64,000 bases of DNA from assembly GCA_018302125.1 (NCBI GenBank), contig JAGWAC010000001.1:33684-97683 (forward strand), written 5' to 3'. Made by a program: the position numbers and the translations under genes. The stretch is from Candidatus Woesearchaeota archaeon. Lineage in GTDB: Archaea > Nanobdellota > Nanobdellia > SCGC-AAA011-G17 > JACPIM01. Below the pieces are notes generated by a model, which did no database searches, was not told the DNA's origin, and was given only the letters and a program-made list of their open reading frames with translations. This document shows positions 5,222-64,000 of this stretch, piece by piece. Position 1 is the first letter of the stretch, and each line of letters begins with the position of its first letter.

Positions 5222-5746
5222 ATGCAAAAAAAGAGATTAAATAAAAGAGCAGCAATTGAACTTTCTATGACTACTATTGTTGTTATTATTCTAGGCATTA
5301 CTCTTTTAAGTTTGGGGTTATTATGGGTAAGGGGAACATTCAAAGATATTACAAGACTTTCTGACGATGCTTTTAGACAAGCAGATGGTGCAATTTCTGA
5401 TATTTTTGAAGAAGTAGATAAAGCAGTTTATGTTTCTCCGCCATCAATTGATTTAGAACAACAATCAGCAAAAACAGCACAATTCAGGATTACTAATTTT
5501 GAACAAGAACAAATAAAAATTAAAGCATCTGTCCAAAGTTCTGATTCAAAAATAAAATGTACTTTTGCAGATACATTCAAAACAGAATCCAAAGAATATA
5601 CGTTAGAATCTGGAAAAACAGTTGAAATTAAAGTTATAGTTGAAGATAGAGATAGTTCACTAGGAATAAAGGGTTGTAATTTTGAAGTTCCGGCAATTAA
5701 AAATGCAAATTCAGATTCTCTTGTAGTAACAGTAGTAAAAAAATAA
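5222..5746 (+). CDS. archaeal type IV pilin-like protein (class III signal peptide)
   Basis: N-terminus MQKKRLNKRAAIELSMTTIVVIILGITLLSLGLL has a basic stretch, a KR-A-A prepilin-like motif and a hydrophobic helix. The remainder is beta-rich and soluble. Confidence 0.5.
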   Translation: MQKKRLNKRAAIELSMTTIVVIILGITLLSLGLLWVRGTFKDITRLSDDAFRQADGAISDIFEEVDKAVYVSPPSIDLEQQSAKTAQFRITNFEQEQIKIKASVQSSDSKIKCTFADTFKTESKEYTLESGKTVEIKVIVEDRDSSLGIKGCNFEVPAIKNANSDSLVVTVVKK

Positions 5747-15135: not shown

Positions 15136-15168
15136 TAGTTTTATATATTTCCTTAACTTTTAAATTTA

Positions 15169-18143: not shown

Positions 18144-18149
18144 TTTGAA

Positions 18150-39190: not shown

Positions 39191-39312
39191 TTTTTTTATT
39201 TCCAATTAACTCTTTTCTGATGGTTAATTAAAAACTTTTTAGAAAAAAGTTTTATCCAAAATTCTATTAAAAACACGTAAAGTATAAATATTCGCATAGT
39301 GCCCAATATATT

Positions 39313-39810
39313 ATGTCTTTCATAAGATTAAAAAAGAGAGTTACAAAATCAAAAGAAAATTTTTATGCTTATATAGTTTCTAATAAATGGCATAACAACC
39401 TTCCAAAACAAAAAATCTCTTTATACTTGGGAAGATATCATAAATTAGATTCTAAAATCATAAAGATAAAGTTGTCTAAACAAGAAAATATTTTAGTTTA
39501 TTTATTAAAAAAAGAGCTTTTGCTACACAATTTTAAGCAAAAAAACCACAGTTTTATTCACCCAAAAGGATTTGTAATTGATTTAAAGAAAAATAAAGTT
39601 CTAAATAAACAAACACAAAACCCAGTTTGTTTAGGCTTAAATCAAGGCTTTCTCTGTTCTTATACATTAAAAAACTTATTAAAATTTAAGCCTAAATTAA
39701 ATAACAAAAAACAAGCAGCTAAGTCCTTAATAAGAATTTTATTGGAAGCAGGAATAAAGCCAGATAAAGACCTATTCTTAGAAACATTCACTAAATTAAA
39801 AATACTCTAA
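39313..39810 (+). CDS. hypothetical basic (Lys-rich) protein (165 aa)
   Basis: ORF only. Confidence 0.35.
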   Translation: MSFIRLKKRVTKSKENFYAYIVSNKWHNNLPKQKISLYLGRYHKLDSKIIKIKLSKQENILVYLLKKELLLHNFKQKNHSFIHPKGFVIDLKKNKVLNKQTQNPVCLGLNQGFLCSYTLKNLLKFKPKLNNKKQAAKSLIRILLEAGIKPDKDLFLETFTKLKIL

Positions 39811-39902
39811 ACAGGCATGCACATCTTATGCACATTCTAAACACATAAACATACCCAATTAATCTACATAATCAATATAAATTTTCTAGCAATCTATCTT
39901 TT

Positions 39903-40562
39903 ATGGAGCCAGATGAAAAAGAGAAAATAAAACAATCTTTCTTAAAAGTCAAAGAAGACATAGAAATCTTAAAAACCCAATTAAATGAGGTTAAAAGCCT
40001 TATTAAGACTCTTGAAAAAAACCTAATTTCTGAAAAACAACTTGATCAAAAACCCCTCACAACCAAAGAAGTTCCACAGGAAATCAGTTCCACAGGAAAT
40101 CAAGGGGTCTATACAAACATTCATTCATTCATTCATGCACATATGCATTCATTCAACAAACATTCAACAGATATTCAACAAACAAACACTCAAATAAATA
40201 CCCACTTAAACAAAAATAAGACTATAGACTGGTCAAAATCTAACCTAACTGATATTGACTCTTATTTTCTAATCCTCACAAAAGGTGAATTTTTATGTTT
40301 TTTAACCATTTATCAGCTTGAAGAAGATTTAAAGAGAGGCGTTTCTTATCTCGAACTCTCACGGCATCTATCTTTATCAGAAGGATGTATTCGTACCTAT
40401 GTCTCTCAAATGCTAAAAAAAGGCTCTCCCTTACAAAAAATACGCCTAAATAATAAACTCACACTTCTTTCCTTAGACAAAAATTTTAGGTTTCTAAACC
40501 TTAAATCTCGTTTAGTTAATATTTTTTCAAGATCTGATCCTAATCAAACCACACTTTCATAA
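39903..40562 (+). CDS. coiled-coil protein with C-terminal winged-HTH-like domain
   Basis: N-terminal heptad-rich region. C-terminus EFLCFLTIYQLEEDLKRGVSYLELSRHLSLSEGCIRTYVSQMLKKG resembles MarR/TrmB-type wHTH. Paralog of 40772-41392. Confidence 0.4.
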   Translation: MEPDEKEKIKQSFLKVKEDIEILKTQLNEVKSLIKTLEKNLISEKQLDQKPLTTKEVPQEISSTGNQGVYTNIHSFIHAHMHSFNKHSTDIQQTNTQINTHLNKNKTIDWSKSNLTDIDSYFLILTKGEFLCFLTIYQLEEDLKRGVSYLELSRHLSLSEGCIRTYVSQMLKKGSPLQKIRLNNKLTLLSLDKNFRFLNLKSRLVNIFSRSDPNQTTLS

Positions 40563-40665
40563 TTTTTTATTTTCAAACTCTTTCTTTTTATATCTCTTTT
40601 TTCAATTTTTTTCATTAATTCTTCTTACAAAATATTAAGATAATTACTAAGAGATAATAAAATGA

Positions 40666-40724
40666 GACGTCACTGACGTCAGTGACGCGTCACTGACGCC
40701 ATAGGAACTTCCAGTGACGCGTCA
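40666..40724. repeat. GC-rich palindromic repeat cluster (GTCACTGAC / GTCAGTGAC units; TGACGCGTCA)
   Basis: ACGTCACTGACGTCAGTGACGCGTCACTGACGCC contains the 22-nt perfect palindrome CGTCAGTGACGCGTCACTGACG. A second element CAGTGACGCGTCA lies at 40712-40724. The flanks are AT-rich. Confidence 0.6.
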
Positions 40725-40771
40725 TAAGCAACAGAAATTTATTTAAACAAAGTAATTTTATTAAAATAAAG

Positions 40772-41392
40772 ATGTGGTGGTTATTTTCAAATAAAAAGAG
40801 GGATACAAGTAGTTCTCATGATATTCATTTATTTAGTAGAATAAAAACTATGGAGGAGAATCTAAAAAATTCTTTCTTCAATATTAAAAAAGATATTCAT
40901 AAAGTAAATAATATAGTTTTTTCCCATGATGATAAGATAAATCATCTAAAAGAAAGAGTCCATTACTTAGAAAACATAATTAAAAATTTAAGGGTATTAG
41001 ACTCTGTCGAAGAATCACCCAAAGAAAAATCCAAAAAAGAAAATATTGAACAGACTATCAATACTGATATTTCTATAAACAATCCAACTATTAAATGGGG
41101 GGATTTAACAAATATTCAACAAAATCTCTTTATGAGATTGGGGTTATTACAGATAGAGGCTAATCAAAGAAGAATAGCTATGAAGCATTTAGCTGAGGAA
41201 TTATATCCTGAAAAAACCTATAATGACGTAAGATCTATGATTTCAGATTATGTTAATTTATTAAATGAGCATGGTTTAGTCAAAAAAACTAGAAAAGGTC
41301 GCCAAATATTTGTTTCTACAACAGAAAAAGGCCTTATTTTCTATGATAAAGCCAAAAAAAAGAAGCTTTTGGATATATTAAGAAAGCATTAA
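40772..41392 (+). CDS. coiled-coil protein with C-terminal winged-HTH-like domain (paralog)
   Basis: Same architecture as 39903-40562 (IAMKHLAEELY...DYVNLLNEHGLVKKTRKGRQIFVSTTEKG). Starts about 50 nt after the palindromic cluster. Confidence 0.4.
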   Translation: MWWLFSNKKRDTSSSHDIHLFSRIKTMEENLKNSFFNIKKDIHKVNNIVFSHDDKINHLKERVHYLENIIKNLRVLDSVEESPKEKSKKENIEQTINTDISINNPTIKWGDLTNIQQNLFMRLGLLQIEANQRRIAMKHLAEELYPEKTYNDVRSMISDYVNLLNEHGLVKKTRKGRQIFVSTTEKGLIFYDKAKKKKLLDILRKH

Positions 41393-41424: not shown

Positions 41425-41829
41425 ATGAAATCTATAAAACAAGAAGATAATTTAGGATGTAGCATAGCTTGTGTTGCTTTTATTTGTAAAACTAATTACA
41501 ATACAGCCAAGAAAAAATATTTCAAAAATTTAGGCAATGCTAAAAAAACTGGTTTTTATTGTACAGATATAGTCAAAGCTTTAAGTCGCGCTAATAAGAA
41601 ATATAACTATAGATATATAAAAAGAAAAAAGAAATTTATCAAAAACACAATTGTTTTTATCAAAAGATCTAAAAAATATCCAGTAGGCCATTTTTTAGTG
41701 TTTTCTGGAAAAGTTTGGATGGATCCTTGGATTAATCTTAATATTTTGAAACTTGATATTAAAAAAAGTAAATCTGGCTTTCGAAAAAGACTTCCCGGAA
41801 GGGCTATTTATGAAATTTTTCCAAGTTAA
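41425..41829 (+). CDS. papain-like (C39-like) cysteine peptidase domain protein
   Basis: QEDNLGCSIACVAFI resembles the C39 Q-x5-CG-A-C active-site region, and GHFLVFSG resembles the catalytic His region; 134 aa. Confidence 0.35.
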   Translation: MKSIKQEDNLGCSIACVAFICKTNYNTAKKKYFKNLGNAKKTGFYCTDIVKALSRANKKYNYRYIKRKKKFIKNTIVFIKRSKKYPVGHFLVFSGKVWMDPWINLNILKLDIKKSKSGFRKRLPGRAIYEIFPS

Positions 41830-42971: not shown

Positions 42972-43847
42972 ATGAAGTTATTAAAAGAGGTAGAAGGTAT
43001 TCTTCAAAAACTTGAAATCGAGCTTAAAATAAGAGGATTTTCTAAGGCAACGATTTCAGCTTACAAAAGACATAATTTCGAATTTTTAACTTTTACAAAT
43101 AAACAACCAAATAAAACGACAATAGATGATGTAAAAGCCTATCAAGTTTATCTTTATGATAAAGGAATAAAACCAACTAGCACGAGTTTAAAGTTATCAT
43201 CTATAAAATTTCTTTTTAATAAAATCTTAAAAATTAAATTAATAACTGATGAAGTTGGTTATCCAAAGTTGCCAAAGAAGATTCCTGATGCTTTAACAAG
43301 AAATGAAGTACAAAGATTATTTTCAGCAGTTTCTAATAAGAAACACCTTCTTTTATTAAAATTTATGTATGGTTCTGGTCTAAGGGTTTCAGAATGTGTT
43401 AATTTTAAAATTAGGGATCTTATTTTTGATAATCTTACTGCAAAAGTTAGGGGGGGTAAAGGAAATAAAGAAAGAATGATTATTTTATCTGAAGAGTTTA
43501 TTTCTTTACTTAAAGAATATCTAAACTACAGAAAAGAGAAGCAATCAGAATATTTATTTCCGTCTAAAAGAAATCCAAACAAACCAATAACAGTAAGAGC
43601 TGCTCAAAATGTTATCGAAAAGGCAGCAAAAAATGCTGGGTTTAATAAAAGAGTTTACTGCCATATTCTAAGAAGCAGTTTTGCAACTCATTTATTAGAA
43701 GATAACACTGATATAAGATATATCCAAGAATTACTTGGTCATATTAATTTAGATACAACAGAACGATATACTAAAGTTAATCCAGAAATTTTAAGAAAAG
43801 TAAAAAGCCCTTTAGATAAGTTAAACAACAAATCTAATAAGTTTTAA
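42972..43847 (+). CDS. xerA: tyrosine recombinase, XerA/XerCD-like
   Basis: Catalytic residues in context (RVSE, HILRSSFATHLLE, LLGH, terminal Tyr in ERYTKV) plus an N-terminal SAM-like domain; 291 aa. Confidence 0.8.
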   Translation: MKLLKEVEGILQKLEIELKIRGFSKATISAYKRHNFEFLTFTNKQPNKTTIDDVKAYQVYLYDKGIKPTSTSLKLSSIKFLFNKILKIKLITDEVGYPKLPKKIPDALTRNEVQRLFSAVSNKKHLLLLKFMYGSGLRVSECVNFKIRDLIFDNLTAKVRGGKGNKERMIILSEEFISLLKEYLNYRKEKQSEYLFPSKRNPNKPITVRAAQNVIEKAAKNAGFNKRVYCHILRSSFATHLLEDNTDIRYIQELLGHINLDTTERYTKVNPEILRKVKSPLDKLNNKSNKF

Positions 43848-52082: not shown

Positions 52083-52637
52083 ATGCCTTCACCATTAGAA
52101 ATAGCAGTTAATTTTTTAAAAGATTTTGGTTTTTTTGATATACTTCTTCCCTTTTTACTAGTTTTTACAATTGTATTTGCTATTTTAGAAAAAACAATGA
52201 TATTGGGACAGGAAAATAATAAGCCCAAGAAAAACATAAATGCTATGGTTGCATTTTCTATTGCTTTGTTTGTTGTTGCAGCAAGCAATATTGTTGCTGT
52301 TTTGCAGCAGTCTTTGCCAATGGTAACTTTGGTTTTGATTGTGATTGTGAGTTTTATGCTTTTGATGGGGAGTTTTATGGGTACAGGAGAATTTTCCTTC
52401 AAAGATTATAAATATACAAAATATTTTCTAGTTTTTTTCTTAATTGTTGGAATTTCATTAATTTTTTTAGGTGCAATAGAATCTGAAAATGGAGATAGTT
52501 GGTTAAGAGTAATATGGGATTATGTCCAGGAAAACTGGTTTACTGGTCCTGCCTTTTCAGGCATAATCTTTTTAATAATAATTGTCCTTGTCATAATTTA
52601 TGTTTTGGATGCTTTCCCTGGGGCTGAAAATCATTAA
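52083..52637 (+). CDS. polytopic membrane protein, paralog 1 of a tandem triplet
   Basis: N-terminus ...FLKDFGFFDILLPFLLVFTIVFAILEK is conserved with the next two ORFs. Confidence 0.45.
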   Translation: MPSPLEIAVNFLKDFGFFDILLPFLLVFTIVFAILEKTMILGQENNKPKKNINAMVAFSIALFVVAASNIVAVLQQSLPMVTLVLIVIVSFMLLMGSFMGTGEFSFKDYKYTKYFLVFFLIVGISLIFLGAIESENGDSWLRVIWDYVQENWFTGPAFSGIIFLIIIVLVIIYVLDAFPGAENH

Positions 52638-52649
52638 AAAAGAGGAAAA

Positions 52650-53216
52650 ATGTCTTTATATGAAATTGTAACAACATTTGAATCAATTGGTGTTTTTGAT
52701 ATAGCTCTGCCATTTCTTTTAGTATTTACTATAACTTTTGGTATTCTTCAAAAAATTAAGTTATTTGGAACAAATAAAAAAAATATTGATTTGATTGTTT
52801 CTTTAGTTCTTGCTTTTTTGGCAATAAGAAATCTTTTCTTTATAGATATGTTAAACAGATTCTTGCCAAATGTAGCTATGTTGTTAATAATTATATTGAT
52901 GTTCTTGTTATTTTTAGGTACTTTTGGTGGAGTGTCATCTGGTTTTCAGGGGGTAATGGCCATACTAGCCTTATTATTTTCAGCAATTGCAGTTTTGCTT
53001 GCTTTAGGTTCAGATCTTTTACTGGGTTACGGTTTTATCATGCCTCCATTTTTAACTGATTTTTTGTATGATTATCAAACAAGAGCAACTCTCTTGTTTA
53101 TAGGTGGAATGGTGATTGTAATATTATTGGCAACCCAGTCAGGAAATAGTCAAACCACTTGGACGCAATGGTTGCAGGAAAGAGCTCAGGAATTAGGCTT
53201 TGGGAGAAATAGATAA
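52650..53216 (+). CDS. polytopic membrane protein, paralog 2
   Basis: ...FESIGVFDIALPFLLVFTITFGILQK. Confidence 0.45.
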   Translation: MSLYEIVTTFESIGVFDIALPFLLVFTITFGILQKIKLFGTNKKNIDLIVSLVLAFLAIRNLFFIDMLNRFLPNVAMLLIIILMFLLFLGTFGGVSSGFQGVMAILALLFSAIAVLLALGSDLLLGYGFIMPPFLTDFLYDYQTRATLLFIGGMVIVILLATQSGNSQTTWTQWLQERAQELGFGRNR

Positions 53217-53743
53217 TGGCAACAATACTTTCAACAAATTTACTTCAGTTTTTCATGCCGATAGTTATCTTCATATTTATATTTACTGTCTTTTTTGCAA
53301 TTTTAAATAAAATAAAATTATTTTCTGATAATAAGCCGATAAATTCGCTTATTGCTTTTTCAGTTACAATTTTATTCATAGTGGTTCCAGAAGCCCGCCA
53401 GATTATTGAATTTGCAACGCCATGGTTCATAATTTTTGTAGTTTTTGGCATGTTGATGATTTTAGCATTTATGTTTTTAGGGGTAGAACCTGATTTTATA
53501 AGGGAGGTTGCAAAGGAAAACGCAATTGTTCTTGGCGTTGTAATTGGCGGCACTATTTTAATTTTTTTAGTTTCTTTTTCTCAAGTATTCGGTCCATCAA
53601 TAATTCAATATCCAGCAGCAGGAGAAACAAGTGTTTTGGCTTTATTGAGAAAGACTGTATTACATCCAAAAATTTTGGGTTTGTTAGTATTGTTAATAAT
53701 TGCTAGTGAAGTTATAAGAAGAGTCAGTTATTCACAAAAATAA
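53216..53743 (+). CDS. polytopic membrane protein, paralog 3
   Basis: ...LLQFFMPIVIFIFIFTVFFAILNK. Start overlaps the stop of paralog 2. Confidence 0.45.
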   Translation: MATILSTNLLQFFMPIVIFIFIFTVFFAILNKIKLFSDNKPINSLIAFSVTILFIVVPEARQIIEFATPWFIIFVVFGMLMILAFMFLGVEPDFIREVAKENAIVLGVVIGGTILIFLVSFSQVFGPSIIQYPAAGETSVLALLRKTVLHPKILGLLVLLIIASEVIRRVSYSQK

Positions 53744-53835: not shown

Positions 53836-54498
53836 TTATTTTTCTCCCTTAAGTTCTTTTGTAATCCTTGATAATTCTTTGATGTTTGTTGTCAGAGGAG
53901 TCATTATTTTTTGGAAAACCTGCTCAAGAACTTTCATTTCATTTCCAATATTTACAATATTTCTGTCATATTGTGAAATTTTTCCCAAAACTGCTTTTTC
54001 AATATTTTCAAACCTGTGCTCTAGTCTTATTAATTCTTGTTTAATAGAAACAACATCTGTTCTAACTCTTTCCTTCCAAACATCTAAATTTCCAATTCTA
54101 TCTATTGTAGTTTTCCATTTTTCATCTATAATTTGTTCAATCAAAGTTTCAACATCATCTAATCCAGATCTTGATCCCTGGAAATCTCCATGAAATGTAA
54201 CTCCTGAAAATCCACCACCAAATCCTCCATTAGAAGAACTTGTTGTTGATCCCTGTGGTTCATCTGGTTCATTCATCAAAGAAGGCTTTAATCCTGGTTC
54301 AGGCGCTTCATCTAAACCAGAAGTTTCTTCTGTATTTTCCTGTGCAGTTAATTGTTTCTGATTAATTGCATCATCTATTTGTACGCTATTATATCCTTCT
54401 TTTTTTAAAGAATTATAAATTTGAGGATTAGAAAGACCCTGATCTTGTAATTCTCCAACTCTCTCTGAAATATCATTATTATTTATCAGATTTATCAC
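53836..54498 (-). CDS. hypothetical protein with acidic low-complexity N-half and coiled-coil C-half
   Basis: ORF only; transcribed divergently from the secretion ATPase. Confidence 0.35.
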   Translation of the reverse strand: MINLINNNDISERVGELQDQGLSNPQIYNSLKKEGYNSVQIDDAINQKQLTAQENTEETSGLDEAPEPGLKPSLMNEPDEPQGSTTSSSNGGFGGGFSGVTFHGDFQGSRSGLDDVETLIEQIIDEKWKTTIDRIGNLDVWKERVRTDVVSIKQELIRLEHRFENIEKAVLGKISQYDRNIVNIGNEMKVLEQVFQKIMTPLTTNIKELSRITKELKGEK

Positions 54499-54916
54499 CT
54501 TCTTCTTTAATCAGTTTTTCTTTTTTTATTAAATTTAATTTATTTTTTGCTGGGGCTTTTTCCAAAAGCTTTCTTTCAATTATTTTTTCAACTTCTTCTT
54601 CTGTTACAAATTCTAATGGGTTCCACAAATTAATATACTTTTCCAAAACTTTAATGTCGTTTTTCTTTGCAAAAAAATCAGTTTCTCTCAAAAATCCATT
54701 TAGAGCCTGTTTTATTGTGTATAATTCTTCTTTCAATTTTTTTATTTCAGAGTTTAAGATGCTTATTTCTTTGCCTAATCTCTTGTATTCCTCTATGCTG
54801 TTTTGGTTTACTGTTAAAAGATGTTCAGATAATAAGCTGTTCTTGCTTTCTAAACTTCTTAATTTGCTGTTAATATCAGAAATTACATCATTTGCATTTT
54901 GGGTAATTAGGGCCAT
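54479..54916 (-). CDS. coiled-coil protein (145 aa)
   Basis: Heptad-rich; overlaps the downstream ORF by 20 nt. Confidence 0.35.
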   Translation of the reverse strand: MALITQNANDVISDINSKLRSLESKNSLLSEHLLTVNQNSIEEYKRLGKEISILNSEIKKLKEELYTIKQALNGFLRETDFFAKKNDIKVLEKYINLWNPLEFVTEEEVEKIIERKLLEKAPAKNKLNLIKKEKLIKEEGDKSDK

Positions 54917-54979
54917 TATATTTTCACCAAATTTATATATTGTTAACTTATTATATAAAAAATATCATATTTAAAACTA

Positions 54980-57253
54980 TTGTTAAAAAGAGATCTTATG
55001 GCAGCTCCTGTTCAAAAAGAGTATGAAATTGTGAGGGAAGGACAAGAAGAAGTTCTAAAAATAGATGCATCTAAATGGCCTTATTCTCCTTCTGTTGAAG
55101 AAAATCCAGTAGTAATGTCTAAAGTGATTGAAAAATTAGTTGAATTTCCCTCTTCAGTAAGACTTATTCTGATTCAAAAAAGAAATTATGAATATGATTA
55201 TGAGCAAACCCAGGCCTTGATTGAAATTGCAAATATATACAAGCATATGACAAAGCAAAAAAGAATCTTGGCATTAAAAACAACAGACGTTTCCTCAGAA
55301 TCATTTAGAAATAAAGCTTTGTCATTACAATACCTGATCTTTACATTATTAAAAGCAGATCCTTTGGGAACTTATGTTGAAGCAAGAAGATTGGCAAGAG
55401 AAACAAGGATCTATCTTGCGAAAGAAAAAGACCAAAATCAGTTAGTTGAAGAGCAGGATTTCTTGACTAAATTAGAATACATAGCAAGGGTTTTAGGCAA
55501 AACAAATTTAATCAAATTATTTGAAGATCAGTTAGGGGGTTATGTAGTTGGCTCAAGAGAATTATACAAACAATTCTTTAAGCCTAATATTACTCCAATT
55601 TTTCTTTTTACAAAAATATCTACAAAAATTCCAGAGCAGTCAAAGCAATTGGATTCTTATTCTTTAAGAAATACAGATGTTTTTATTTACAAAATAAAGG
55701 AGGATGTTAAAAATTATTACAGGCTAATTCCACCAGAATTAAAATTAACAGAAGATCAGTATGAAATATTGAATGTTGCAAGAAAAGTCTTGTCAGAACA
55801 TAAACCAAAGGATGAGGAATTCCTGGATCCTCAAAGATTAAGAAGAACTTTTTATAATATTGGGCGTGACTTGTTAATTGATCTGTTAAATAATAAAAAT
55901 ATTGAAATGCCATTGGAGGCAATCAATGAATTAGCTAAAATATTAGTAAGATACACAATAGGTTTTGGTGCTATAGAATTATTGTTGCAAGATCAAAAAA
56001 TCCAGGATATTGTAGTAAATAGCCCGATTGGACAAACACCCATATTTATAGTTCACGAAGATTTTAGTGATTGTGTTACAAATATAATTCCTAGTTCAGA
56101 AGATGCTGAAAGCTGGGCAACTAAATTCAGATTATTATCTGGAAGACCATTAGATCAGGCTAATCCAATTTTAGATACAGAGTTGTCAATCCCAGGAGCA
56201 AGGTCAAGAGTTGCTGTTATTTCCGAACCTTTAAGCAGATTGGGTTTAGCTTATTCTTTCAGAAGACACAGAGATAATCCCTGGACTTTGCCATTATTCA
56301 TGAAAAATAAAATGATTAATTCTTTAGGTTCTGCATTAATAAGTTTTTTATTTGATAATTCTAGAAGTGTACTTTTTGCAGGATCTAGATCAAGTGGAAA
56401 AACCTCGATTTTAGGGGCTTCTTTATTTGAGATCATGAAAAAATATAGGATTTTAGTAATTGAAGATACAGAAGAAATTAATACAGAAGCAATGAGAAAA
56501 ATAGGATATAATATTCAGTCAATGAAAGTTCGTTCTGCTTTGTCCCATTCCTCAACAGAAGTTCCTGCAGACGAGGGAATTAGAACTGCATTAAGATTAG
56601 GAGATTCTGCAATAATTGTGGGTGAAATTAGAAGCACAGAATGTTTATCTTTGTATGAAGCAATGAGAATAGGTGCAGCAGCAAATGTTGTTGCAGGAAC
56701 TATACACGGTGATAGTCCTTATGGTGTATTTGACAGAGTTGTGAATGATTTAAAAGTTCCTCGAACTTCTTTCAAAGCAACAGATATTATCATAATCTCA
56801 AATCCAGTAAAAAGTCCAGATGGGCTTCATAAATTTAGGAGAGTTCTTTCAATTACAGAAGTAAGAAAACATTGGGAAAAAGATCCTCTAAAAGAAAAAG
56901 GTTTTGTAGATTTAATGAAATACAATCCTAAAACAGATCAGTTGGAGCCTACAGATGATTTAATTAATGGTGATTCTGAAGTTCTTAAATCAATAGCATC
57001 AAATACAAAAGAATGGTCTTCTGATTGGAATGCTTTATGGGAAAATATTTTGTTGAGGGCAAAAATAAATCAGGCTTTAGTTGATACTTCTTTAAGCTTA
57101 AACCTGCCCAAAGTTTTGGAAGCAGAATTCATAGTAAGATCCAATGATGCTTTCCATAAAATTATTGAGCAAGTAAAAGAGGAAACAGAATCTTTAGATA
57201 ATGAAAAAATTTATTCTTTATGGGCAGACTGGTTAAAGAGAGAAACGAAATGA
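54980..57253 (+). CDS. type II/IV secretion system ATPase (FlaI/TadA/VirB11 superfamily) with long N-terminal extension
   Basis: Four family hallmarks are present. GFGAIELLLQDQKIQDIVVNSP is the N-domain signature. Walker A is GSRSSGKTS. Asp/Glu box is ILVIEDTEEI. The His box is DSAIIVGEIRSTECLSLYEAMRIGAAANVVAGTIHG. Length 757 aa. Confidence 0.85.
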   Translation: MLKRDLMAAPVQKEYEIVREGQEEVLKIDASKWPYSPSVEENPVVMSKVIEKLVEFPSSVRLILIQKRNYEYDYEQTQALIEIANIYKHMTKQKRILALKTTDVSSESFRNKALSLQYLIFTLLKADPLGTYVEARRLARETRIYLAKEKDQNQLVEEQDFLTKLEYIARVLGKTNLIKLFEDQLGGYVVGSRELYKQFFKPNITPIFLFTKISTKIPEQSKQLDSYSLRNTDVFIYKIKEDVKNYYRLIPPELKLTEDQYEILNVARKVLSEHKPKDEEFLDPQRLRRTFYNIGRDLLIDLLNNKNIEMPLEAINELAKILVRYTIGFGAIELLLQDQKIQDIVVNSPIGQTPIFIVHEDFSDCVTNIIPSSEDAESWATKFRLLSGRPLDQANPILDTELSIPGARSRVAVISEPLSRLGLAYSFRRHRDNPWTLPLFMKNKMINSLGSALISFLFDNSRSVLFAGSRSSGKTSILGASLFEIMKKYRILVIEDTEEINTEAMRKIGYNIQSMKVRSALSHSSTEVPADEGIRTALRLGDSAIIVGEIRSTECLSLYEAMRIGAAANVVAGTIHGDSPYGVFDRVVNDLKVPRTSFKATDIIIISNPVKSPDGLHKFRRVLSITEVRKHWEKDPLKEKGFVDLMKYNPKTDQLEPTDDLINGDSEVLKSIASNTKEWSSDWNALWENILLRAKINQALVDTSLSLNLPKVLEAEFIVRSNDAFHKIIEQVKEETESLDNEKIYSLWADWLKRETK

Positions 57254-59436
57254 AAATAGAAGAAAGTACAGAAGATATTTTAAAAAAATATAGGGAAGAA
57301 ATCTCAAGACAAATTAAATTTTCAGATCAAGAGTATTTTCCAGATGAAAACTTTTCAATAGAATATAAAATATTTAGAAAAGAGAATTTGGAAAAAAATT
57401 TAACAAGATATGAACAGTTTTGCAATGCTTCTGAAAAACTTTTAAGAGTAAGTCCAGATAAAAAAGTGATATTAAGAATTCAGGAAGCAATTGAAAGACT
57501 TCATTTGGATATAACTCCGGAAGGAGCAATGAGTTTTGCAGTTTTAATTGGCTTGGCAATAATACTGATGGGTTTTTTGACCTTATTAGTTCCTTTGCTG
57601 GTATTATTTTCTTTGGAATCTTTGCCATTGAAAGAATTAATTTCCCAAGTTCCTATTTTTCTTTCATTAGCTGTTTTAATTTCAGGATTTTTAGTTATTA
57701 TTCCGTTAAGTAAGTATCCTCTAAAATTAGCAAATGATTATAGGTTAAAGGCAAGCAATCAGATGGTTCTTTGTATTCTTTATATTGTTACATATATGAG
57801 ACATACATCAAATTTGGAAAATGCAGTAAAATTTGCTGGTGAACACTTAACAGCCCCTTTATCTTTGGATTTAAGAAAAGTATTGTGGGATGTAGAAACA
57901 GGAAAATTTGTAACAGTAAAAGACAGTCTTGATAATTATTTGATTTATTGGAAACCATATAATCTTGAATTCATAGAATCTTTTCATTTAATTCAAGGCT
58001 CTTTATATGAGCCAGATGAAATTAGGAGGGTAAGATTGCTTGAAAAATCACTTGAAACAATTTTAACTTCAGTATATGAAAGGATGCTTCATTATGCTCA
58101 AGAATTAAAAACACCAATTACAATGCTTCATATGCTTGGTGTCATTTTGCCAATTTTAGGTTTGGTAATTTTTCCTTTAATGGGTAGCTTTATTGGGGGC
58201 TTGGTAAAATGGTATCATTTGGCATTTATTTACAATATTTTTCTGCCCATAGCAATCTATTTTATTGGCACAAACTTGTTGGAAAAAAGACCAACAGGTT
58301 ATTCAGAATCAGAATTTTTTTCAAGGCAATTTTCTTTGGACAGATTTCAAAAAACTAAAATTTTAGGACTGCAATTTAGTGTTAAGTTTCTGTCAATATT
58401 ATTAGGTTCAATTTTTATTTTAATTGGATTTACCCCAATATTTATGCATTTCTTCGATTCTTCATTAGATCAGGCTGCTTTTTTAGGTTTTAAATTACTG
58501 GATTATAAATGCGTGTCAGGAAAATGCTTGGGTCCATATAGTACATTTTCAATGCTAATTAGTCTTTTAATTCCCCTTGGTGTGGCAATTGCAATCAGTT
58601 TGTATTATTATATGACAACAAAAGACATAATTAAAATCAGAAAAGAGACAATGGATCTTGAAAAGGAATTTACAGCTGCTTTGTTTCAATTGGGAAATAG
58701 GGTTGGAGATGGAATTCCAGTAGAAGTTGCTTTTAGCCAAGTAGCTGAAAATATGAAAAATACACCAGCTGGAAATTTATTCAAGCTCATTGATTATAAT
58801 ATAAGAAGACTTGGAATGGATGTTAAAGCAGCTGTTTTTGACAAGCAAAGGGGGGCGTTAAATTTTTACCCAAGCTCTTTAATTGAAACTTCTATGAAAG
58901 TTCTTGTTCAGGCAGCTAAAAAATCCCCAATGACAGTTTCCAAATCTTTGTTGACAATTTCAAATTATGTGAAAAAAATTCATGTTGTGGATGAAAGATT
59001 AAAAGATTTATTGGCAGATATAATTTCTTCAATGAAATCTCAGGTTTCTTTCTTGACTCCAATGATTGCTGGAATTGTGATTGCAGTTAGCTCGATGATT
59101 ACCACTGTAATCAATAAATTAGGTGAGGAGTTTGCAAAAGCAACAGAATTATCTCCAGATGCAACAGTAGGCATTCAGAACTTGCCGTTGGATATAATAA
59201 ATATAAAGGATGTAATTCCTGGTTTTTATCTGCAGTTAGTTATTGGCCTTTATGTAATTCAGATAGGAATTATTTTAACCATATTAGCAAGTGGAATTGA
59301 AAAAGGCATAGATAGGTTGTCAGAAAAAAATCTTATTGGTAAAAATATTTTAATTTCAACTCTTCTTTATGTTGTAATTTCAACAGTTGGAATTTTAGTA
59401 TTTAGTTTGTTGGCGAGAGGAATTTCGCAAATATAG
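57220..59436 (+). CDS. TadC/FlaJ-like polytopic membrane platform protein
   Basis: At least 9 TM helices with two cytoplasmic helical domains, as in T2SS-F/FlaJ proteins. Positioned directly after the ATPase. The alternative ATG at 57250 overlaps the ATPase stop (ATGA). Confidence 0.7.
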   Translation: MGRLVKERNEMKIEESTEDILKKYREEISRQIKFSDQEYFPDENFSIEYKIFRKENLEKNLTRYEQFCNASEKLLRVSPDKKVILRIQEAIERLHLDITPEGAMSFAVLIGLAIILMGFLTLLVPLLVLFSLESLPLKELISQVPIFLSLAVLISGFLVIIPLSKYPLKLANDYRLKASNQMVLCILYIVTYMRHTSNLENAVKFAGEHLTAPLSLDLRKVLWDVETGKFVTVKDSLDNYLIYWKPYNLEFIESFHLIQGSLYEPDEIRRVRLLEKSLETILTSVYERMLHYAQELKTPITMLHMLGVILPILGLVIFPLMGSFIGGLVKWYHLAFIYNIFLPIAIYFIGTNLLEKRPTGYSESEFFSRQFSLDRFQKTKILGLQFSVKFLSILLGSIFILIGFTPIFMHFFDSSLDQAAFLGFKLLDYKCVSGKCLGPYSTFSMLISLLIPLGVAIAISLYYYMTTKDIIKIRKETMDLEKEFTAALFQLGNRVGDGIPVEVAFSQVAENMKNTPAGNLFKLIDYNIRRLGMDVKAAVFDKQRGALNFYPSSLIETSMKVLVQAAKKSPMTVSKSLLTISNYVKKIHVVDERLKDLLADIISSMKSQVSFLTPMIAGIVIAVSSMITTVINKLGEEFAKATELSPDATVGIQNLPLDIINIKDVIPGFYLQLVIGLYVIQIGIILTILASGIEKGIDRLSEKNLIGKNILISTLLYVVISTVGILVFSLLARGISQI

Positions 59437-59461
59437 TTGCAGAAATATATATGCATATATT

Positions 59462-59692
59462 ATGACAAAAGTAATATCCTTATCTAATAAATCCTATTCA
59501 AAAATAAAAGCTATAAAAAAATCAGGAGAATTATTTTCTGATGTAGTTATAAAATTAGTAAATAAAACAAAAAAGAAACCATTAATAGGCTTTTTTGGGA
59601 AATGGCCTGGTTCAAATGAAGAAGCCGAAAATATTAAAAAAATATTAGAAAAAGGAAGAAAGAAATTTAAGACAAAAGAAGTAGTCTTTTAA
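59462..59692 (+). CDS. VapB-like (AbrB/SpoVT-type) antitoxin-like small protein, orphan
   Basis: MTKVISLSNKSYSKIKAIKKSGELFSDVVIKLV...FFGKWPGSNEEAENIKKILEKGRKKFK matches the common archaeal antitoxin pattern. No PIN gene is adjacent. Confidence 0.45.
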   Translation: MTKVISLSNKSYSKIKAIKKSGELFSDVVIKLVNKTKKKPLIGFFGKWPGSNEEAENIKKILEKGRKKFKTKEVVF

Positions 59693-59750
59693 TGTTTAGA
59701 TACAAATATTAGCATCTAATTTTTCAATTAAGCTTTTTTAAAAAAAAAGA

Positions 59751-60182
59751 TTACACTGGCAAGAAAGGCAGATATTGTGATATTAATCTGCTTACAAAAG
59801 GCCATGCAAATGGTGCTGCCTGAATTAAAGCAGTAATAATTAATGCGTGAACCCATGTTTCTCCAATGCTTCCCATTCTACCAGCTCCTCTGGCAACAAC
59901 ACCAGATCCATGCACTTTTAATATTGTAATTAATCCAATAATTACTCTTACAACAATTTCATTTCCTAAAAACGGAATTGTGCTTAATGCAGGAATTGAT
60001 TCAAAAACAAAATTCATATTCATTAAAACAAAAATAAAAAGCATAGTAACTAATAATGAATGCCAGAAATGTTTCAGAAAATGGCTTCCTCTAAAAGCCA
60101 AGTCTTTGTGAATTGCAAAGAATTCATATAATCCTAAAACTAGACCCATGTAAATTGCTGGTAAAATCAACACATCTGCCAT
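59751..60182 (-). CDS. hypothetical membrane protein (143 aa, 4 TM)
   Basis: ORF only. Confidence 0.35.
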   Translation of the reverse strand: MADVLILPAIYMGLVLGLYEFFAIHKDLAFRGSHFLKHFWHSLLVTMLFIFVLMNMNFVFESIPALSTIPFLGNEIVVRVIIGLITILKVHGSGVVARGAGRMGSIGETWVHALIITALIQAAPFAWPFVSRLISQYLPFLPV

Positions 60183-60313
60183 AAAAACTATGTTTTTTCT
60201 GTGCTTTTTAAATATTTTTATTTTTCTTCAGAATACTAACTAATTACTATTTTTCTAAAAATTAGCAATTTTTAGCAAAAACCTTTAAATATACTCTTAT
60301 TCTAATTAAATTA

Positions 60314-60919
60314 ATGTTAATAAAAAAAGCGGTGATATTTACAATTTTGCTTGTTTTTATGCTTAATTCAGCTAGTGCCCAATACTATTATGATCAAAGT
60401 TTTGATTTTGGATTTTTGTCTGTTGGTGGCGTAGATGATATCTTATATTTATATGGAATTTATTCAGGATGGATTGATTTCTTCTTGTCTTTATTAATAT
60501 TTTTAGGCCTGACTCAGGCAGTATTTGAAAATACCCATTTAAGATCTCAGTCTAAAACATTGTCTATTGGATTGTCTTTGGCTTTGTCATTTGGGCTAAT
60601 ATATTGGGAAAGGCAGACTGGTGTAACTTTATTGTCATTAGGACCATTAGCTTTCTTATTTTTTTTAATTTTGATTTATTTTGTAATTTTCCAGCTAATG
60701 CAGAAATTGGGAACAGGATATTGGACAGCAGGCGCTTGGGCCTATGTTGTTATTTTTAGTATGCTGTCAATTGTTCAAAATCCTTTAATTGGTTGGTTTG
60801 TTGATATAAATTTATTTAATTTATTGCATATGCTTTTCTGGATTGCAATTTTAATTGGTATAATTGGGTTGTTTGTAGATAGGAGAGCTCCGGCAGCCAG
60901 ACCAGTGGGGGGTCCTTGA
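60314..60919 (+). CDS. secreted/membrane protein with Sec signal peptide (ASA-QYYYD), paralog of 63008-
   Basis: Signal peptide, then the conserved SAQYYYD..S motif and several TM helices; 201 aa. Confidence 0.45.
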   Translation: MLIKKAVIFTILLVFMLNSASAQYYYDQSFDFGFLSVGGVDDILYLYGIYSGWIDFFLSLLIFLGLTQAVFENTHLRSQSKTLSIGLSLALSFGLIYWERQTGVTLLSLGPLAFLFFLILIYFVIFQLMQKLGTGYWTAGAWAYVVIFSMLSIVQNPLIGWFVDINLFNLLHMLFWIAILIGIIGLFVDRRAPAARPVGGP

Positions 60920-63006
60920 AAATGATCAAAAACTTTTTCAATTTTAAAAAACAAAAAGAAACCATTGTTTTAGATAATCCCCCTGAAAAAGAATTGGAAG
61001 ATCTTTTCCAAAATCTAAATAATTTCTCTTCATTAATAAAAAAATCTTCAAATAAGAATTTAATCTTAAAAGATTTTGATATTTTGGACTTAAAAATAAT
61101 TGAATTCATAAATAAGCATGGCAGAAATTCTTATTATGGTAAAAAAGCAGTTGAATTCTCAAAGCAGCTGTCAGAATATTATTCTTTTTTCAGGGATAAT
61201 ATTCATCTATATCTGGATGAGCCAGTTTCACAGATAAAAAAAGAAGAGCCTAAAATAGATTTGGATGCAGTTTACTCAGATTTAAGAAAAAGGCTGAATA
61301 GCTTCAAGGAATCAATAAACCAAGGAAATTTAACAGAAGACGAAATTGAAAATTTTATTTTGTTGTTCAATGATGAAATAAAGGAGCTTATGAAATTATC
61401 TGATAAAGATTACAAATTTAAATTTATTGAATTAAAAAACAAATTAATTTCATTTTACAAACAATTGCAGAAAAAAGAAGAGGAAGAACTAACAAAAAAT
61501 GCTTACGAAGCAAATTTAACATTTGTAAATTTAGTCTTAAACAGCTTTAAATCCAATTCTCAAGCCTTAATTTCTTTGATTAACTTGGAGAAAAAAACAG
61601 ACCAGGAGATTCTTGAAATAAACAATAAAATGTTTGAAATAAAGGAAAAATATCTTGAAACAAAAGAAATAATAGAAACCAAGCTTTCTGGAAAAGAAAA
61701 AGACTCTTTCTTAAAGAAATTAAATGCTGAATATAATCAAATTGATTCCTTGTATATAAATTACATAGAAAAATTAGCTTCTTTGGAAACAGAGATATCT
61801 GAAAAAATAGAAATTCCTGAAAAACAATTTTCAATAACTTTATTTGAAGTTTTAAAATCTTTTAAGCCTAATCCAATATTAAAATTAAGGGAAAACAAGG
61901 AAAAATTAAGAAAAAAACAGCAGGCAGCAGTAGAGCAGACAATAAATATTTTGACAGAAGTCCTGAATAATGCTGAATTATATGAAACAGAAGAGCTTAA
62001 GCAGATATTTACAAATAATTTCCAGGTTTATGAAAAATTCATATTAAACACAGATTATAGTTTGTTAGTTAAATCCTTGTTAGATGATTTGGAAGATAAT
62101 ATTTCCAAATTAGATGAAGAAAAAAAATTTAAGATTAAAAGAGATTCAATTGCAAAAGATTCTTACAATTTTCTTAAGCATGTAAATTCCAGTCTTCAAG
62201 ATTATTCAATAGAGGAACTCCAGGTAATTTTTGAGAAAAATCTTGAAAATTACAAGACATATTCAAAATATACTATTTTCGGCTTAAAAATAAATAATTT
62301 ATTAAATCAACTAAACACATATATAACAACAGTCTCAAACAGAAAATCAATACAAGAAGAGTTGTCAAGAGTTTTTCTAAACAAGTTGGACAAAGCAGCA
62401 ACAAATTTTGAAAATTATTCTATAAATTATCTGCAAAACGTGCTTAATAAATCTTCAGAAGAATACAATGCCTATTACAAAACATCTAAATTTGCTAGAA
62501 ATATAGAGTTTTCATTGCAGAATATTTCTAATACTCTGTCTTTGTTACAAATCCTTGTCTCCTATATAGAAAGGGATCTATCAATAACAGAAAACCAAAG
62601 ATTGTTGTTAAGAGACTTAATTTACACCACTTATTCGCAGTTTTTTTCATTTGGATCTAGTTTTATTTTTCATTTAAGCTCAAGAAGATCATTAAAAAAA
62701 CTCGAAAAAGTCTTTAATCTGGAGATTGAAAGGAAATTAATGCTTGAAGATGTTAATAATAAGATTATTTCCTTAAATTTGTCAAATAACGCTTACATTA
62801 AGCTATTGATTAATAATCTGATTAATGCAAAGAAACATCAGTCAAACGGGGATTTAAAAGAAACTTTTCTTGAATTATCAAGCAAAATATCAAAAAATGA
62901 TAAATTATCCATGAATGAGGCTATTGTAAAATTAATGGAACTTACAAATTCAGTTTTGCCATTAAGAAAAAAATCACTTTTGGAATTAAAAACAAAATTA
63001 ATGTAA
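60916..63006 (+). CDS. large Lys/Glu/Asn-rich coiled-coil protein (696 aa)
   Basis: Low-complexity heptad-rich sequence, no signal peptide. Start overlaps the preceding stop (ATGA). Confidence 0.45.
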   Translation: MKMIKNFFNFKKQKETIVLDNPPEKELEDLFQNLNNFSSLIKKSSNKNLILKDFDILDLKIIEFINKHGRNSYYGKKAVEFSKQLSEYYSFFRDNIHLYLDEPVSQIKKEEPKIDLDAVYSDLRKRLNSFKESINQGNLTEDEIENFILLFNDEIKELMKLSDKDYKFKFIELKNKLISFYKQLQKKEEEELTKNAYEANLTFVNLVLNSFKSNSQALISLINLEKKTDQEILEINNKMFEIKEKYLETKEIIETKLSGKEKDSFLKKLNAEYNQIDSLYINYIEKLASLETEISEKIEIPEKQFSITLFEVLKSFKPNPILKLRENKEKLRKKQQAAVEQTINILTEVLNNAELYETEELKQIFTNNFQVYEKFILNTDYSLLVKSLLDDLEDNISKLDEEKKFKIKRDSIAKDSYNFLKHVNSSLQDYSIEELQVIFEKNLENYKTYSKYTIFGLKINNLLNQLNTYITTVSNRKSIQEELSRVFLNKLDKAATNFENYSINYLQNVLNKSSEEYNAYYKTSKFARNIEFSLQNISNTLSLLQILVSYIERDLSITENQRLLLRDLIYTTYSQFFSFGSSFIFHLSSRRSLKKLEKVFNLEIERKLMLEDVNNKIISLNLSNNAYIKLLINNLINAKKHQSNGDLKETFLELSSKISKNDKLSMNEAIVKLMELTNSVLPLRKKSLLELKTKLM

Positions 63007-63007
63007 A

Positions 63008-64000
63008 ATGAAATTTAAGTTATTGTTGTTTATATTTGTATTATTTAATTTAGTTCCATTAGTTTCTGCTCAATATTATTATGATTCAAGCTACAGTGGA
63101 ATTTCAACATTTACATTTCCATTCTTTGATTTATCTGTAGGCAGTTTATTGGAATTATATGATTCATATCATCAATTTTGGGATTTTCTTTTGTCTCTTG
63201 CTTTGTTAATAGCTGTTTTCTCCCATACTATAGAAGATAAATTAGGCAGGCAAACGCCAGTAATTCTTGCTATAATTTTGTCAATTGGGTTTGTTTCATT
63301 TGAAAGAAAATTTAATTTTAATATTGGTGATTTAGGTCCGATAGCTGTTCTTGTTTTTCTATTATGCTTATTGATTGGAGTATTATATTTAATAAAATGG
63401 ATTTGGGGTCAGTTTTCAGAAAATAAGGGTTCTTCAATTCTCTCTTTGGTTCTATTTATTATTGCTCTTTTGGTAATTGCTGTTTTATTTTTGAAAGATA
63501 CTGGAAAAATGCCTGATCTTAGTGATGGTCAGAAGATTTTAGGTTTGGGAATTTTGGCTGCCCTCGGATATTTGTTGTTCTTGGCTTATAAATCTGGCTG
63601 GTTTTCTAGTTCTGAAAAGCCAGATAGACCTGGTATTTCAATTGAAGAGCCAGATTTAACAAGGGCAAGAAGAGCAAGAGAAACTGCAGAAGAACCAGGA
63701 GCCTCTTCAGAAAAACCATCTTTGTTTTCAAGAATATTTTCCGAAACACCAGATAGCAAGGAGTACAAAAAAATATCCCTTTTAGTTTCAGCTTTTATAG
63801 AAAATACAAAAGATTCTGAATTTAAAGAAGATTTTATTTTAAGAAGATATAATTCAACTCAAAATTACATAAAGTCTTTTGTAATAAGATTCCCAAAATC
63901 AAAATACCTTCAATCAGTTAATGAGCTTATAGCTCAATTAAACAAGGCTCTTGAGGATTATATTTCTTTCAAGCAAAATAGGGAGCAGATTGAGCAGAAT
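63008..64000 (+). CDS. secreted/membrane protein with Sec signal peptide (VSA-QYYYD), paralog of 60314-60919; runs past window end
   Basis: ATG at 63008. MKFKLLLFIFVLFNLVPLVSAQYYYDSSYSG... is open through 64000 and is not in the supplied ORF track because no stop lies within the window. Confidence 0.45.
   Translation, partial: MKFKLLLFIFVLFNLVPLVSAQYYYDSSYSGISTFTFPFFDLSVGSLLELYDSYHQFWDFLLSLALLIAVFSHTIEDKLGRQTPVILAIILSIGFVSFERKFNFNIGDLGPIAVLVFLLCLLIGVLYLIKWIWGQFSENKGSSILSLVLFIIALLVIAVLFLKDTGKMPDLSDGQKILGLGILAALGYLLFLAYKSGWFSSSEKPDRPGISIEEPDLTRARRARETAEEPGASSEKPSLFSRIFSETPDSKEYKKISLLVSAFIENTKDSEFKEDFILRRYNSTQNYIKSFVIRFPKSKYLQSVNELIAQLNKALEDYISFKQNREQIEQN

Follow-up and report, generated by a model that had tools for sequence, protein, structure and literature searches.

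Archaeal adhesive pili (Aap and Ups of Sulfolobales, PilB-PilC of Haloferax, Epd of Methanococcus) have in common an ATPase-platform pair and multigene clusters whose products bear class III signal peptides; in archaea, pilin genes are also often scattered (PMC4858521). Accessory membrane and coiled-coil proteins that are specific to a clade have precedents in archaeal pilus loci (Makarova et al. 2016, PMC4858521). In DPANN archaea, type IV pilus islands with pilins recognizable only by their signal peptides are described in passages of a later survey (Makarova, Wolf, Koonin 2019, PMC6393860). Papers on Woesearchaeota list only "flaI/flaJ/flaK," from automatic annotation (PMC5994134, PMC11606122). 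Here, we report a locus from a 64,000-nucleotide stretch of chromosomal DNA of Candidatus Woesearchaeota archaeon (contig JAGWAC010000001.1; locus tags J4449_005xx), called the window below, that probably encodes an assembly machine for a type IV pilus (type IV filament superfamily). Woesearchaeota are abundant, uncultured, and thought to live attached to other cells; to our knowledge, their contact machinery is not known.

The machine belongs to the type IV pilus/archaellum superfamily, carries lineage-specific accessory genes, and is not a standard archaellum. The main evidence for a filament-building role is a cluster of prepilin-like genes that lies beyond the window end. Seven linked genes, encoding a motor ATPase, a platform protein, three tandem membrane proteins (T1 to T3), and two coiled-coil proteins (cc145 and cc220), travel together in most of the relatives examined; further membrane proteins of a family that we call QYYYD (QY1 and QY2 in the window) are encoded downstream of the motor.

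Compared with the archaeal adhesive pili, the locus differs in a platform too diverged for Pfam T2SSF, in an ATPase with conserved N- and C-terminal extensions, in T1-T3/QYYYD, cc145, and cc220 proteins without detectable counterparts, and in pilins that match no family. It has in common with the DPANN "dark matter" islands (PMC6393860, Fig. 2A) an ATPase and a TadC amid unannotated signal-peptide proteins, which passages of that paper predict to be divergent pilins; the loci of its figure aside, its text passages do not mention the triplet/coiled-coil block or a Woesearchaeota-wide seven-gene core. With the archaellum motor (FlaI/ArlI, FlaJ/ArlJ, FlaH, and FlaX or FlaC/D/E), it shares the ATPase superfamily and the platform fold, and its soluble coiled-coil partners are reminiscent of the FlaX/FlaCDE scaffolds; it differs in a FlaI score far under the cutoff and in lacking FlaH, FlaF/G, and archaellin among the window open reading frames (ORFs) scanned, which are most of the long ones. 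Bacterial Tad/Flp systems supply two of the best ATPase matches, CpaF and the TadA model, and two tandem pilin-like genes of ~49 codons are Flp-sized. The differences from Tad/Flp are a TadA score well below its cutoff, one large platform instead of TadB plus TadC, leaders without the Flp G|XXXXEY motif (by eye), and no homologs here of TadZ, RcpA, or TadE/F/G.

A literature search, which was not exhaustive, returned no account of the seven-gene core, the platform family, or the T/QY family. The accessory proteins appear to be undescribed, and their roles are given here as we infer them. Archaeal type IV pili, including divergent DPANN versions, are already known, so the gain is incremental unless the accessory proteins do something new. 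The locus defines a linked gene set and candidate pilins as concrete targets for the study of Woesearchaeal cell contact, and it flags a platform family with thousands of members missed by annotation pipelines and a new membrane protein family whose T1 model has no fold match in PDB.

Loci and sequence analysis

GTDB species representatives were scanned with the ATPase, giving 80 loci with an ATPase 52-90% identical to the window protein, all from Woesearchaeota/Nanoarchaeia metagenome-assembled genomes or from obviously mislabelled bins. Among the GTDB records with the module, many (L010 to L016, L019, L049, and others) bear the title "uncultured Methanosarcinales archaeon" and one bears "Patescibacteria group bacterium"; these are probably mislabelled bins. 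L-numbers (L001 to L083) denote the related loci and contigs compared with the window locus; L081 to L083 are near-identical contigs from other metagenomes, found by exact look-up of QY1, that reach past position 64000. Synteny was detected by tblastn and family hidden Markov models (HMMs). Counts of the upstream block were restricted to the 49 loci with at least 4.5 kb 5' of the ATPase gene, and counts of linked pilins to the 38 loci whose sequence continues for 4 kb or more past the platform gene. The ATPase alignment comprised 79 sequences (78 orthologs from fetched loci plus the window protein).

The scan of the window covered all but ~12 long (≥100 aa), non-nested ORFs, the unscanned ones including 20665-21750 (361 aa). 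Coiled coils were judged by a crude heptad test against shuffles, and the platform model was searched with Foldseek against 350,542 PDB chains. A class III pattern was defined as a short basic leader ending in [KR][GA], followed by a hydrophobic helix. The ORFs listed in an earlier note on this DNA, made from the sequence alone, were all found, at the same or close coordinates (Table 1); its gene list had omitted a VapB-like gene and a gene for a 143-aa membrane protein, both between the core and the QYYYD genes.

Motor genes

The ATPase (identical to MBS3171080.1; NCBI name, "type II/IV secretion system ATPase subunit") matches Pfam T2SSE over residues 422-600 (50.3 bits; gathering threshold, 24.9). 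Its nearest solved relatives are Archaeoglobus afGspE (2oap; 5e-24), Caulobacter CpaF (~5e-18), and Sulfolobus FlaI (3e-15). The top NCBIfam models are FlaI NF058587 (135.3 bits; equivalog cutoff, 550) and TadA TIGR03819 (114.4 bits; cutoff, 373), and since both scores are under their cutoffs, the protein is a superfamily member and neither a FlaI nor a TadA equivalog. The earlier label of "FlaI/TadA-family ATPase" is therefore right for the superfamily and wrong if taken to mean archaellum FlaI.

Walker A (GSRSSGKT, residues 468-475), Asp box (IEDTEE, 494-499), Walker B (IIVGEIR, 545-551), and His box (TIHG, 574-577) are all present, their key residues are invariant in 79/79 aligned sequences, and judged by these motifs the ATPase is catalytically intact. 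Mean identity to the window protein in the same alignment is 71% in the catalytic core. An N-terminal extension of ~200-230 aa is real, because FlaI and afGspE begin to align only at ~residue 235; it is kept within the family (mean identity, 37%; ~30 near-invariant residues). Searches with this extension found nothing in Pfam (family consensus) or PDB (profile), a subtilisin prosegment match of the profile (PDB; E, 0.002) being weak and probably spurious. The protein also bears a C-terminal extension of ~100 aa. The long N-terminal extension had been noticed before, in a protein given as 757 aa. The ORF does open at TTG 54980 (757 aa), and the start is most likely ATG 54998 (751 aa) instead, because the NCBI protein and the public gene calls have the shorter length and because a purine-rich AAGAGA precedes this ATG.

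One ATPase ortholog (L042, 1091-4870, plus strand; 1259 aa) carries an intein with a LAGLIDADG endonuclease (PF14890, 7.8e-23; PF14528, 7e-18), inserted after the residue equivalent to ~553, right behind Walker B. A Ced/Ted-like DNA transfer system was considered and rejected, the ATPase being of the wrong family.

Could the two motor genes be an ordinary archaellum FlaI/FlaJ pair whose other fla genes lie elsewhere? FlaI is the top NCBIfam model for the ATPase, and surveys of Woesearchaeota list flaI, flaJ, flaK, and flaB from automatic annotation (PMC5994134, PMC11606122). This origin is nonetheless highly improbable: the FlaI score is 135 bits against a cutoff of 550 and is nearly equaled by TadA (114), afGspE and CpaF outscore FlaI among solved ATPases, FlaH, FlaF/G, and archaellin are absent both from the scanned window ORFs and from the families that recur in the 80 loci, and the linked signal-peptide proteins have no archaellin family match. 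The earlier statement that no recognizable FlaH, FlaF/G, or archaellin genes are present agrees with these results for the ORFs scanned, and the outcome that would have refuted the earlier reading, a standard FlaI/FlaJ archaellum with the rest of the fla operon nearby, is not borne out.

The platform protein has ~9 transmembrane segments and two helical bundles in the cytoplasm; a small, beta-rich insert on the extracellular side holds a conserved CxxxxC. In its AlphaFold2 model (predicted local distance difference test [pLDDT], 79.8; predicted template-modeling score [pTM], 0.76), transmembrane helices follow each of the two cytoplasmic helical bundles. The only high-probability (0.99-1.00) Foldseek matches of this model are cytoplasmic domains of the T2SSF family, namely EpsF (2vma, 2vmb, 3c1q), OutF (5nbg), and PilC (2whn), with template-modeling scores by target [TM(target)] of 0.65-0.73 and a root mean square deviation of 3.1-3.4 Å over ~107-121 columns. 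The rank-1 match is the PilC chain of a type IVa pilus (T4aP) machine model (3jc8_Ca; probability, 0.69). Sub-threshold Pfam T2SSF matches occur in 7/38 family members (best E, 0.004), and the family consensus matches T2SSF with an E of 0.39 (profile positions 7-125 of 125). The only PDB matches by sequence or profile are G-protein-coupled receptors, by chance. Because of the fold matches, the sub-threshold T2SSF signals, and the ATGA coupling to the ATPase gene, the modeled protein is very probably a platform of the T2SSF/FlaJ/TadC type. The earlier "TadC/FlaJ-like" assignment thus gains nothing from sequence models and holds at the level of the fold.

Two platform starts had been merged in the earlier gene description, which gave 738 aa together with an ATGA overlap. 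Each exists: the ORF opens at 57220 (738 aa; 34-nt overlap with the ATPase gene), and the ATGA overlap belongs to ATG 57250 (728 aa, the same as NCBI J4449_00550). More than 3,299 homologs were found at an E of ≤0.001. Identity is 48-91% for the best 120, all of which lack a precomputed Pfam domain; their sources call a few of them "hypothetical protein" and one "TadB." A platform ortholog lies 3' of the ATPase gene in 77/80 loci, nearly always directly after it (~+2.2 to 2.7 kb). In L002, L019, L030, and L077, the ortholog lies 3.5-7.5 kb past the ATPase start instead of ~2.2 kb, which implies insertions in or between both genes.

Candidate filament subunits

Right after the QY2 gene, ~2.6 kb past the window end, L081 has a tandem cluster of at least nine co-directional prepilin-like ORFs (49-273 aa), whose leaders (MNKKA, MNKKG, MNKRG, FNKKG, MNKNG) are short and basic, end in K/R/N and then G/A, and precede a hydrophobic helix. 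The leaders of nine of these ORFs have the shape of the archaeal class III (prepilin) signal peptide. The class III pattern is matched by eight ORFs in 4.3 kb of the cluster versus one in the entire 64-kb window. The lack of filament subunit genes at the locus, as it appeared in the earlier note, is thus an artifact of the window boundary, and its surface-filament reading of the core gains from the cluster and from the ATPase and platform fold.

The same cluster follows QY2 in L001 and L003. In L018, the ATPase gene, the platform gene, and seven flagged pilin-like genes lie on one strand, and three more ORFs begin with MNK[KN]G; L062 has an equally large pilin cluster ~1.5 kb after the platform gene, and L021 has a smaller one. 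In L005, L007, L046, and L048, a QYYYD-family gene, often followed by a gene for a 61-64-aa protein with two transmembrane segments, precedes the pilin-like genes; L004 has the same order, and its sequence ends after the first pilin-like gene. The density of pilin-like ORFs is ~10-fold higher downstream of the motor (1.45 per 10 kb) than upstream (0.15 per 10 kb). Two tandem ~49-aa genes and a ~130-aa gene (hydrophobic helix, then FFLGGFG) recur across clusters, and their products are candidate core subunits. Since only 8/38 loci have a linked cluster, pilin genes would lie elsewhere in most Woesearchaeota.

The sole class III match within the window is the isolated gene at its start (MQKKRLNKRA|AIELSMTTIVVIILG...), which had already been proposed as a class III candidate and may encode a substrate far from the locus. 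Its N terminus resembles the pilin-like genes of L062 and L018; Pfam matches of its C-terminal part to Ig-like/cadherin-like families are weak.

The same motor might instead drive a short pseudopilus or another kind of translocation (protein or DNA export to or from a host), with T1-T3 as a membrane conduit. Consistent with this, the ATPase and platform are conserved to an unusual degree (~50-70% identity) for genomes that evolve fast, adjacent pilins are wanting in most loci, described archaeal pili have no counterpart of the three conserved polytopic membrane proteins, and one ATPase ortholog has an intein in its catalytic core. Inteins tend toward conserved, functionally critical sites. The informative neighbors, on the other hand, are multi-gene pilin clusters, as at adhesive pilus loci; there is no hint of a nucleic-acid-binding or channel component at the locus; and archaeal pilin genes are commonly scattered (PMC4858521). 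A translocation machine is thus distinctly less plausible than a pilus, and we regard it as improbable.

Accessory genes

T1 and T2 are 41% identical over 95 aa (blastp; E, 3.8e-12), and profile-profile comparison (hhalign) of the families gives probabilities of 100% for T1 versus T2, 99.4% for T3 versus T1, and 99.1% for T3 versus T2. The earlier claim of a paralogous triplet at 52083-53743 is borne out for all pairs, and these comparisons mark T1, T2, and T3 as separate paralogous families of old origin. T1 has 334 homologs, every one unannotated, and no Pfam or NCBIfam family match. Its AlphaFold2 model (pLDDT, 78; pTM, 0.49) is all-helical, with an N-terminal amphipathic helix and four to five transmembrane helices. 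T1-T3 were rejected as prepilins: although the first hydrophobic helix has a Gly before it, the leader is acidic and lacks [KR] at -2, and each protein has four to five transmembrane segments. They were also rejected as A24 prepilin peptidases, their invariant residues including no conserved Asp pair or GxGD motif.

The earlier note placed the core between two divergent coiled-coil genes. Both in fact lie upstream, in tandem on the minus strand, and diverge from the ATPase gene. Their coiled-coil nature is supported by the crude heptad test, with signals at residues 12-81 of cc145 and, above shuffles, at residues 129-200 of cc220; the acidic Gly/Ser-rich linker reported for one of them is seen in the 220-aa protein. 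No transmembrane segments are found in cc220, and its homologs are all unannotated. Comparison of the two families (hhalign probability, 68%; E, 4.6e-5) suggests that cc145 and cc220 may share a coiled-coil core or paralogy. The family consensus sequences of T1, T2, T3, cc145, and cc220 have no significant Pfam match, FlaC_arch matching the cc220 consensus insignificantly (E, 0.5). Five other named proteins of the locus looked up in GenBank are all "hypothetical protein."

Among the 80 loci, cc145 is present in 62, cc220 in 57, and T1, T2, and T3 in 50 to 51 each (T3 in 51). All five families occur upstream in 39/49 loci. The triplet and the two coiled-coil genes are syntenic even where the ATPase is only 52-58% identical, and the rest of the flanks consists of unrelated housekeeping genes and varies from lineage to lineage. 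The whole five-gene block is inverted together in L059 and still adjoins the ATPase gene; in L078, T1 and T2 are inverted likewise, and no coiled-coil genes were detected. A short divergent spacer (38-126 bp) between the coiled-coil and ATPase genes occurs in 23 relatives, several with AAAGAGGT immediately 5' of the ATG, and from its sequence the spacer would act as a promoter region.

Downstream, QY1 and QY2 are 35% identical over 125 aa (E, 5e-12), which agrees with the earlier description of them as paralogs. Full-length QY2 has 902 aa in L082 and 980 aa in L083, and the L001 ortholog has 917 aa. The QY HMM matches 220-243-aa proteins in L004, L005, L007, and L048 (E, 1e-54 to 1e-66) and a protein in L046 (8.5e-8); the QYYYD family is thus found again in a broader subclade, and its genes invariably lie after the platform gene and before the pilin cluster. 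Comparison of the QY and T families (hhalign) gives probabilities of 40-83% (E, 1e-5 to 3e-4) versus 0.2-0.3% for control membrane segments. The first transmembrane region of QY1 and QY2 is in register with the motif of the first transmembrane segment of T1-T3 (G-x-x-D-x-x-L-...-A-x-x-E-x-T), and one QY-like ORF of L005 is assigned by HMM to the T2 family. From these comparisons, the QY and T families are likely of common origin.

The length of QY2 differs between near-identical contigs (L082, 12695-15403; L083, 12695-15637). In L081 (12695-15489), QY2 is interrupted by an N run, and the ATPase and platform calls are split; these may be assembly errors or real disruptions. A conserved ORF of 61-64 aa with two transmembrane segments (MRWMLTFVGVLVVLGGLLPL...) is present in L004 (~15756-15950), L005 (~15050-15235), L046 (~15080-15275), and L048 (~18083-18270), ~+5.1 to +8.1 kb from the ATPase start. 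It directly follows the QYYYD gene in L004, L005, and L046 and lies ~2.5 kb further in L048, still ahead of the pilin-like genes; the window lineage showed no counterpart.

No transmembrane segments and no Pfam or NCBIfam family match were found in cc696. The earlier note called this protein a Lys/Glu/Asn-rich coiled coil; the composition is as described, and the long coiled coil was rejected, the heptad signal being no better than in shuffles (crude test). Together, QY1 and cc696 have the architecture of QY2 (T-like membrane domain plus long helical tail) split over two chains; the tail of QY2 and cc696 have no significant sequence similarity. This likeness, an indirect and the sole clue, suggests a pairing of T-like membrane proteins with long helical proteins of the cytoplasm.

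Conservation of the accessory genes is therefore uneven. The triplet and coiled-coil genes are conserved and syntenic and QYYYD genes recur in the wider subclade, but among the 80 loci cc696 is found only in the closest relatives (L001, L003, and L042), as are the 143-aa membrane protein and the VapB-like gene (the latter in L001 and L042). The VapB-like gene, which directly follows the platform gene, is probably not part of the machine; no recognizable VapC/PIN partner lies beside it.

TABLE 1 Coordinates of the features discussed, as positions in the window
Feature	Position	Strand	Length	Description
Isolated prepilin-like gene	5222..5746	+	174 aa	Ig-like C-terminal part
T1	52083..52637	+	184 aa	Polytopic membrane protein, first of three tandem paralogs; NCBI J4449_00520, "hypothetical"
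T2	52650..53216	+	188 aa	Paralog of T1 (blastp vs T1)
T3	53216..53743	+	175 aa	Divergent paralog of T1/T2; start overlaps T2 stop by 1 nt
cc220	53836..54498	-	220 aa	Soluble; small N-terminal helical domain, acidic Gly/Ser-rich linker, C-terminal coiled coil
cc145	54479..54916	-		Soluble coiled-coil protein; divergent from ATPase gene; overlaps cc220 start by 20 nt
Divergent intergenic region	54917..54997	.	81 bp	AT-rich; TTTATATA-like TATA elements; AAGAGA ribosome-binding-like motif before ATPase ATG
Secretion/pilus ATPase	54998..57253	+	751 aa	GspE/FlaI/TadA/VirB11 superfamily; Pfam T2SSE, E 1.8e-13
Platform protein	57250..59436	+	728 aa	Polytopic; ATGA overlap with ATPase stop
VapB-like antitoxin gene	59462..59692	+	76 aa	PF02697, E 8e-13
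143-aa membrane protein	59751..60182	-	143 aa	Only in L001, L003, L042
QY1	60314..60919	+	201 aa	Sec signal peptide (ASA|QYYYD), 4-5 transmembrane segments
cc696	60916..63006	+	696 aa	Soluble Lys/Glu/Asn-rich helical protein; start (TTG) overlaps QY1 stop
QY2	63008..64000	+	N-terminal 331 aa in window	Runs off window; Sec signal, T-like membrane domain, long helical tail

Weighing of the reading and proposed mechanism

Several results weigh against a type IV pilus machine with these accessory parts. For the platform, no sequence match was found in Pfam, NCBIfam, or PDB (single sequence or 38-sequence profile), the Foldseek E values are weak (0.3-2), and the internal duplication typical of T2SSF was not detected when its halves were compared (hhalign probability, 0.1%; effective sequence number [Neff] of the alignment, only 2.3). 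For the filament, the linked pilin cluster is present in only 8/38 loci, the nine L081 proteins have no pilin or archaellin family match in Pfam at an E of ≤0.05, so that it is by signal-peptide shape only that they would be pilins, and the window ORFs scanned (most long ORFs) include no prepilin peptidase. For the accessory proteins, neither the T1 model nor the T1 profile has a structural or sequence relative in PDB, the QY-T relationship is moderately supported only, some or all upstream genes are missing next to the ATPase in 10/49 loci, and contacts of the motor with T1-T3 or with the coiled-coil proteins are hypothetical.

The last group of results bears on whether the triplet and coiled-coil genes are mere conserved neighbors with an unrelated membrane or cell-envelope function. 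Their arrangement in separate transcription units, T1-T3 converging on the coiled-coil genes and these diverging from the ATPase gene, would fit such a role, as would the 10 loci without some or all of them and the lack of homology to any pilus component. Against it, the linkage persists at 52-55% ATPase identity while all other flanks change, the block stays adjacent when inverted (L059; T1/T2 in L078), QYYYD genes for T-like proteins adjoin pilin clusters across the motor from the block, and the coiled-coil genes and the ATPase gene share a short divergent region that is a putative promoter. Mere neighborhood therefore seems unlikely to us, and we lean slightly toward the T and coiled-coil proteins being physical parts of the pilus machine.

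For this machine, we propose that a peptidase encoded elsewhere would trim the MNKK[A/G] prepilin leaders. By analogy with other type IV filament systems, a hexameric ATPase would dock on the platform and spend ATP on lifting pilins out of the membrane to build a surface filament; candidates for its major subunit are the conserved ~130-aa pilin and either of the two Flp-sized pilins (49 aa). The T1-T3/QYYYD membrane proteins would anchor cc145 and cc220 (and cc696 with QY1) at the cytoplasmic face, where the anchored proteins could form a motor scaffold with a role like that of FlaX/ArlCDE or PilMNO; a scaffold is proposed because a single chain, QY2, combines a T-like membrane domain with a long helical tail. 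Adhesion or host contact would be the most plausible function of the filament.

A bolder version is that T1-T3/QYYYD and cc145/cc220 form an undescribed membrane-to-cytoplasm scaffold specific to Woesearchaeales-like DPANN archaea and that the seven-gene core encodes not an optional adhesive pilus but a near-universal organelle for host contact or material exchange underlying episymbiosis. We offer this tentatively and consider it doubtful.

Other observations in the window

The other window content is housekeeping, including MCM and PolD (both with inteins), TBP, Cdc6, topoisomerase VI, tRNA synthetases, and LonB. Intein and LAGLIDADG insertions are present in both the MCM gene (7946-11614, plus strand) and the gene for the DNA polymerase D large subunit (DP2; 27186-32144, minus strand). 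A small Peptidase_C39-like ORF (41425-41829, plus strand; E, 3.5e-5) lies beside several ORFs without a family match (unannotated ORFs at 38753-41392), a setting reminiscent of the bacteriocin-like C39 islands in passages of PMC6393860. A tyrosine recombinase (42972-43847, plus strand; Phage_integrase; E, 1.3e-41) may be an XerA-like housekeeping protein or the mark of a mobile element. An N-terminal AAA+ fragment (35631-36623, plus strand) and a LonB-like protease (37367-38731, plus strand; LID, Lon_C) are encoded ~740 bp apart and could be a split or interrupted LonB gene.

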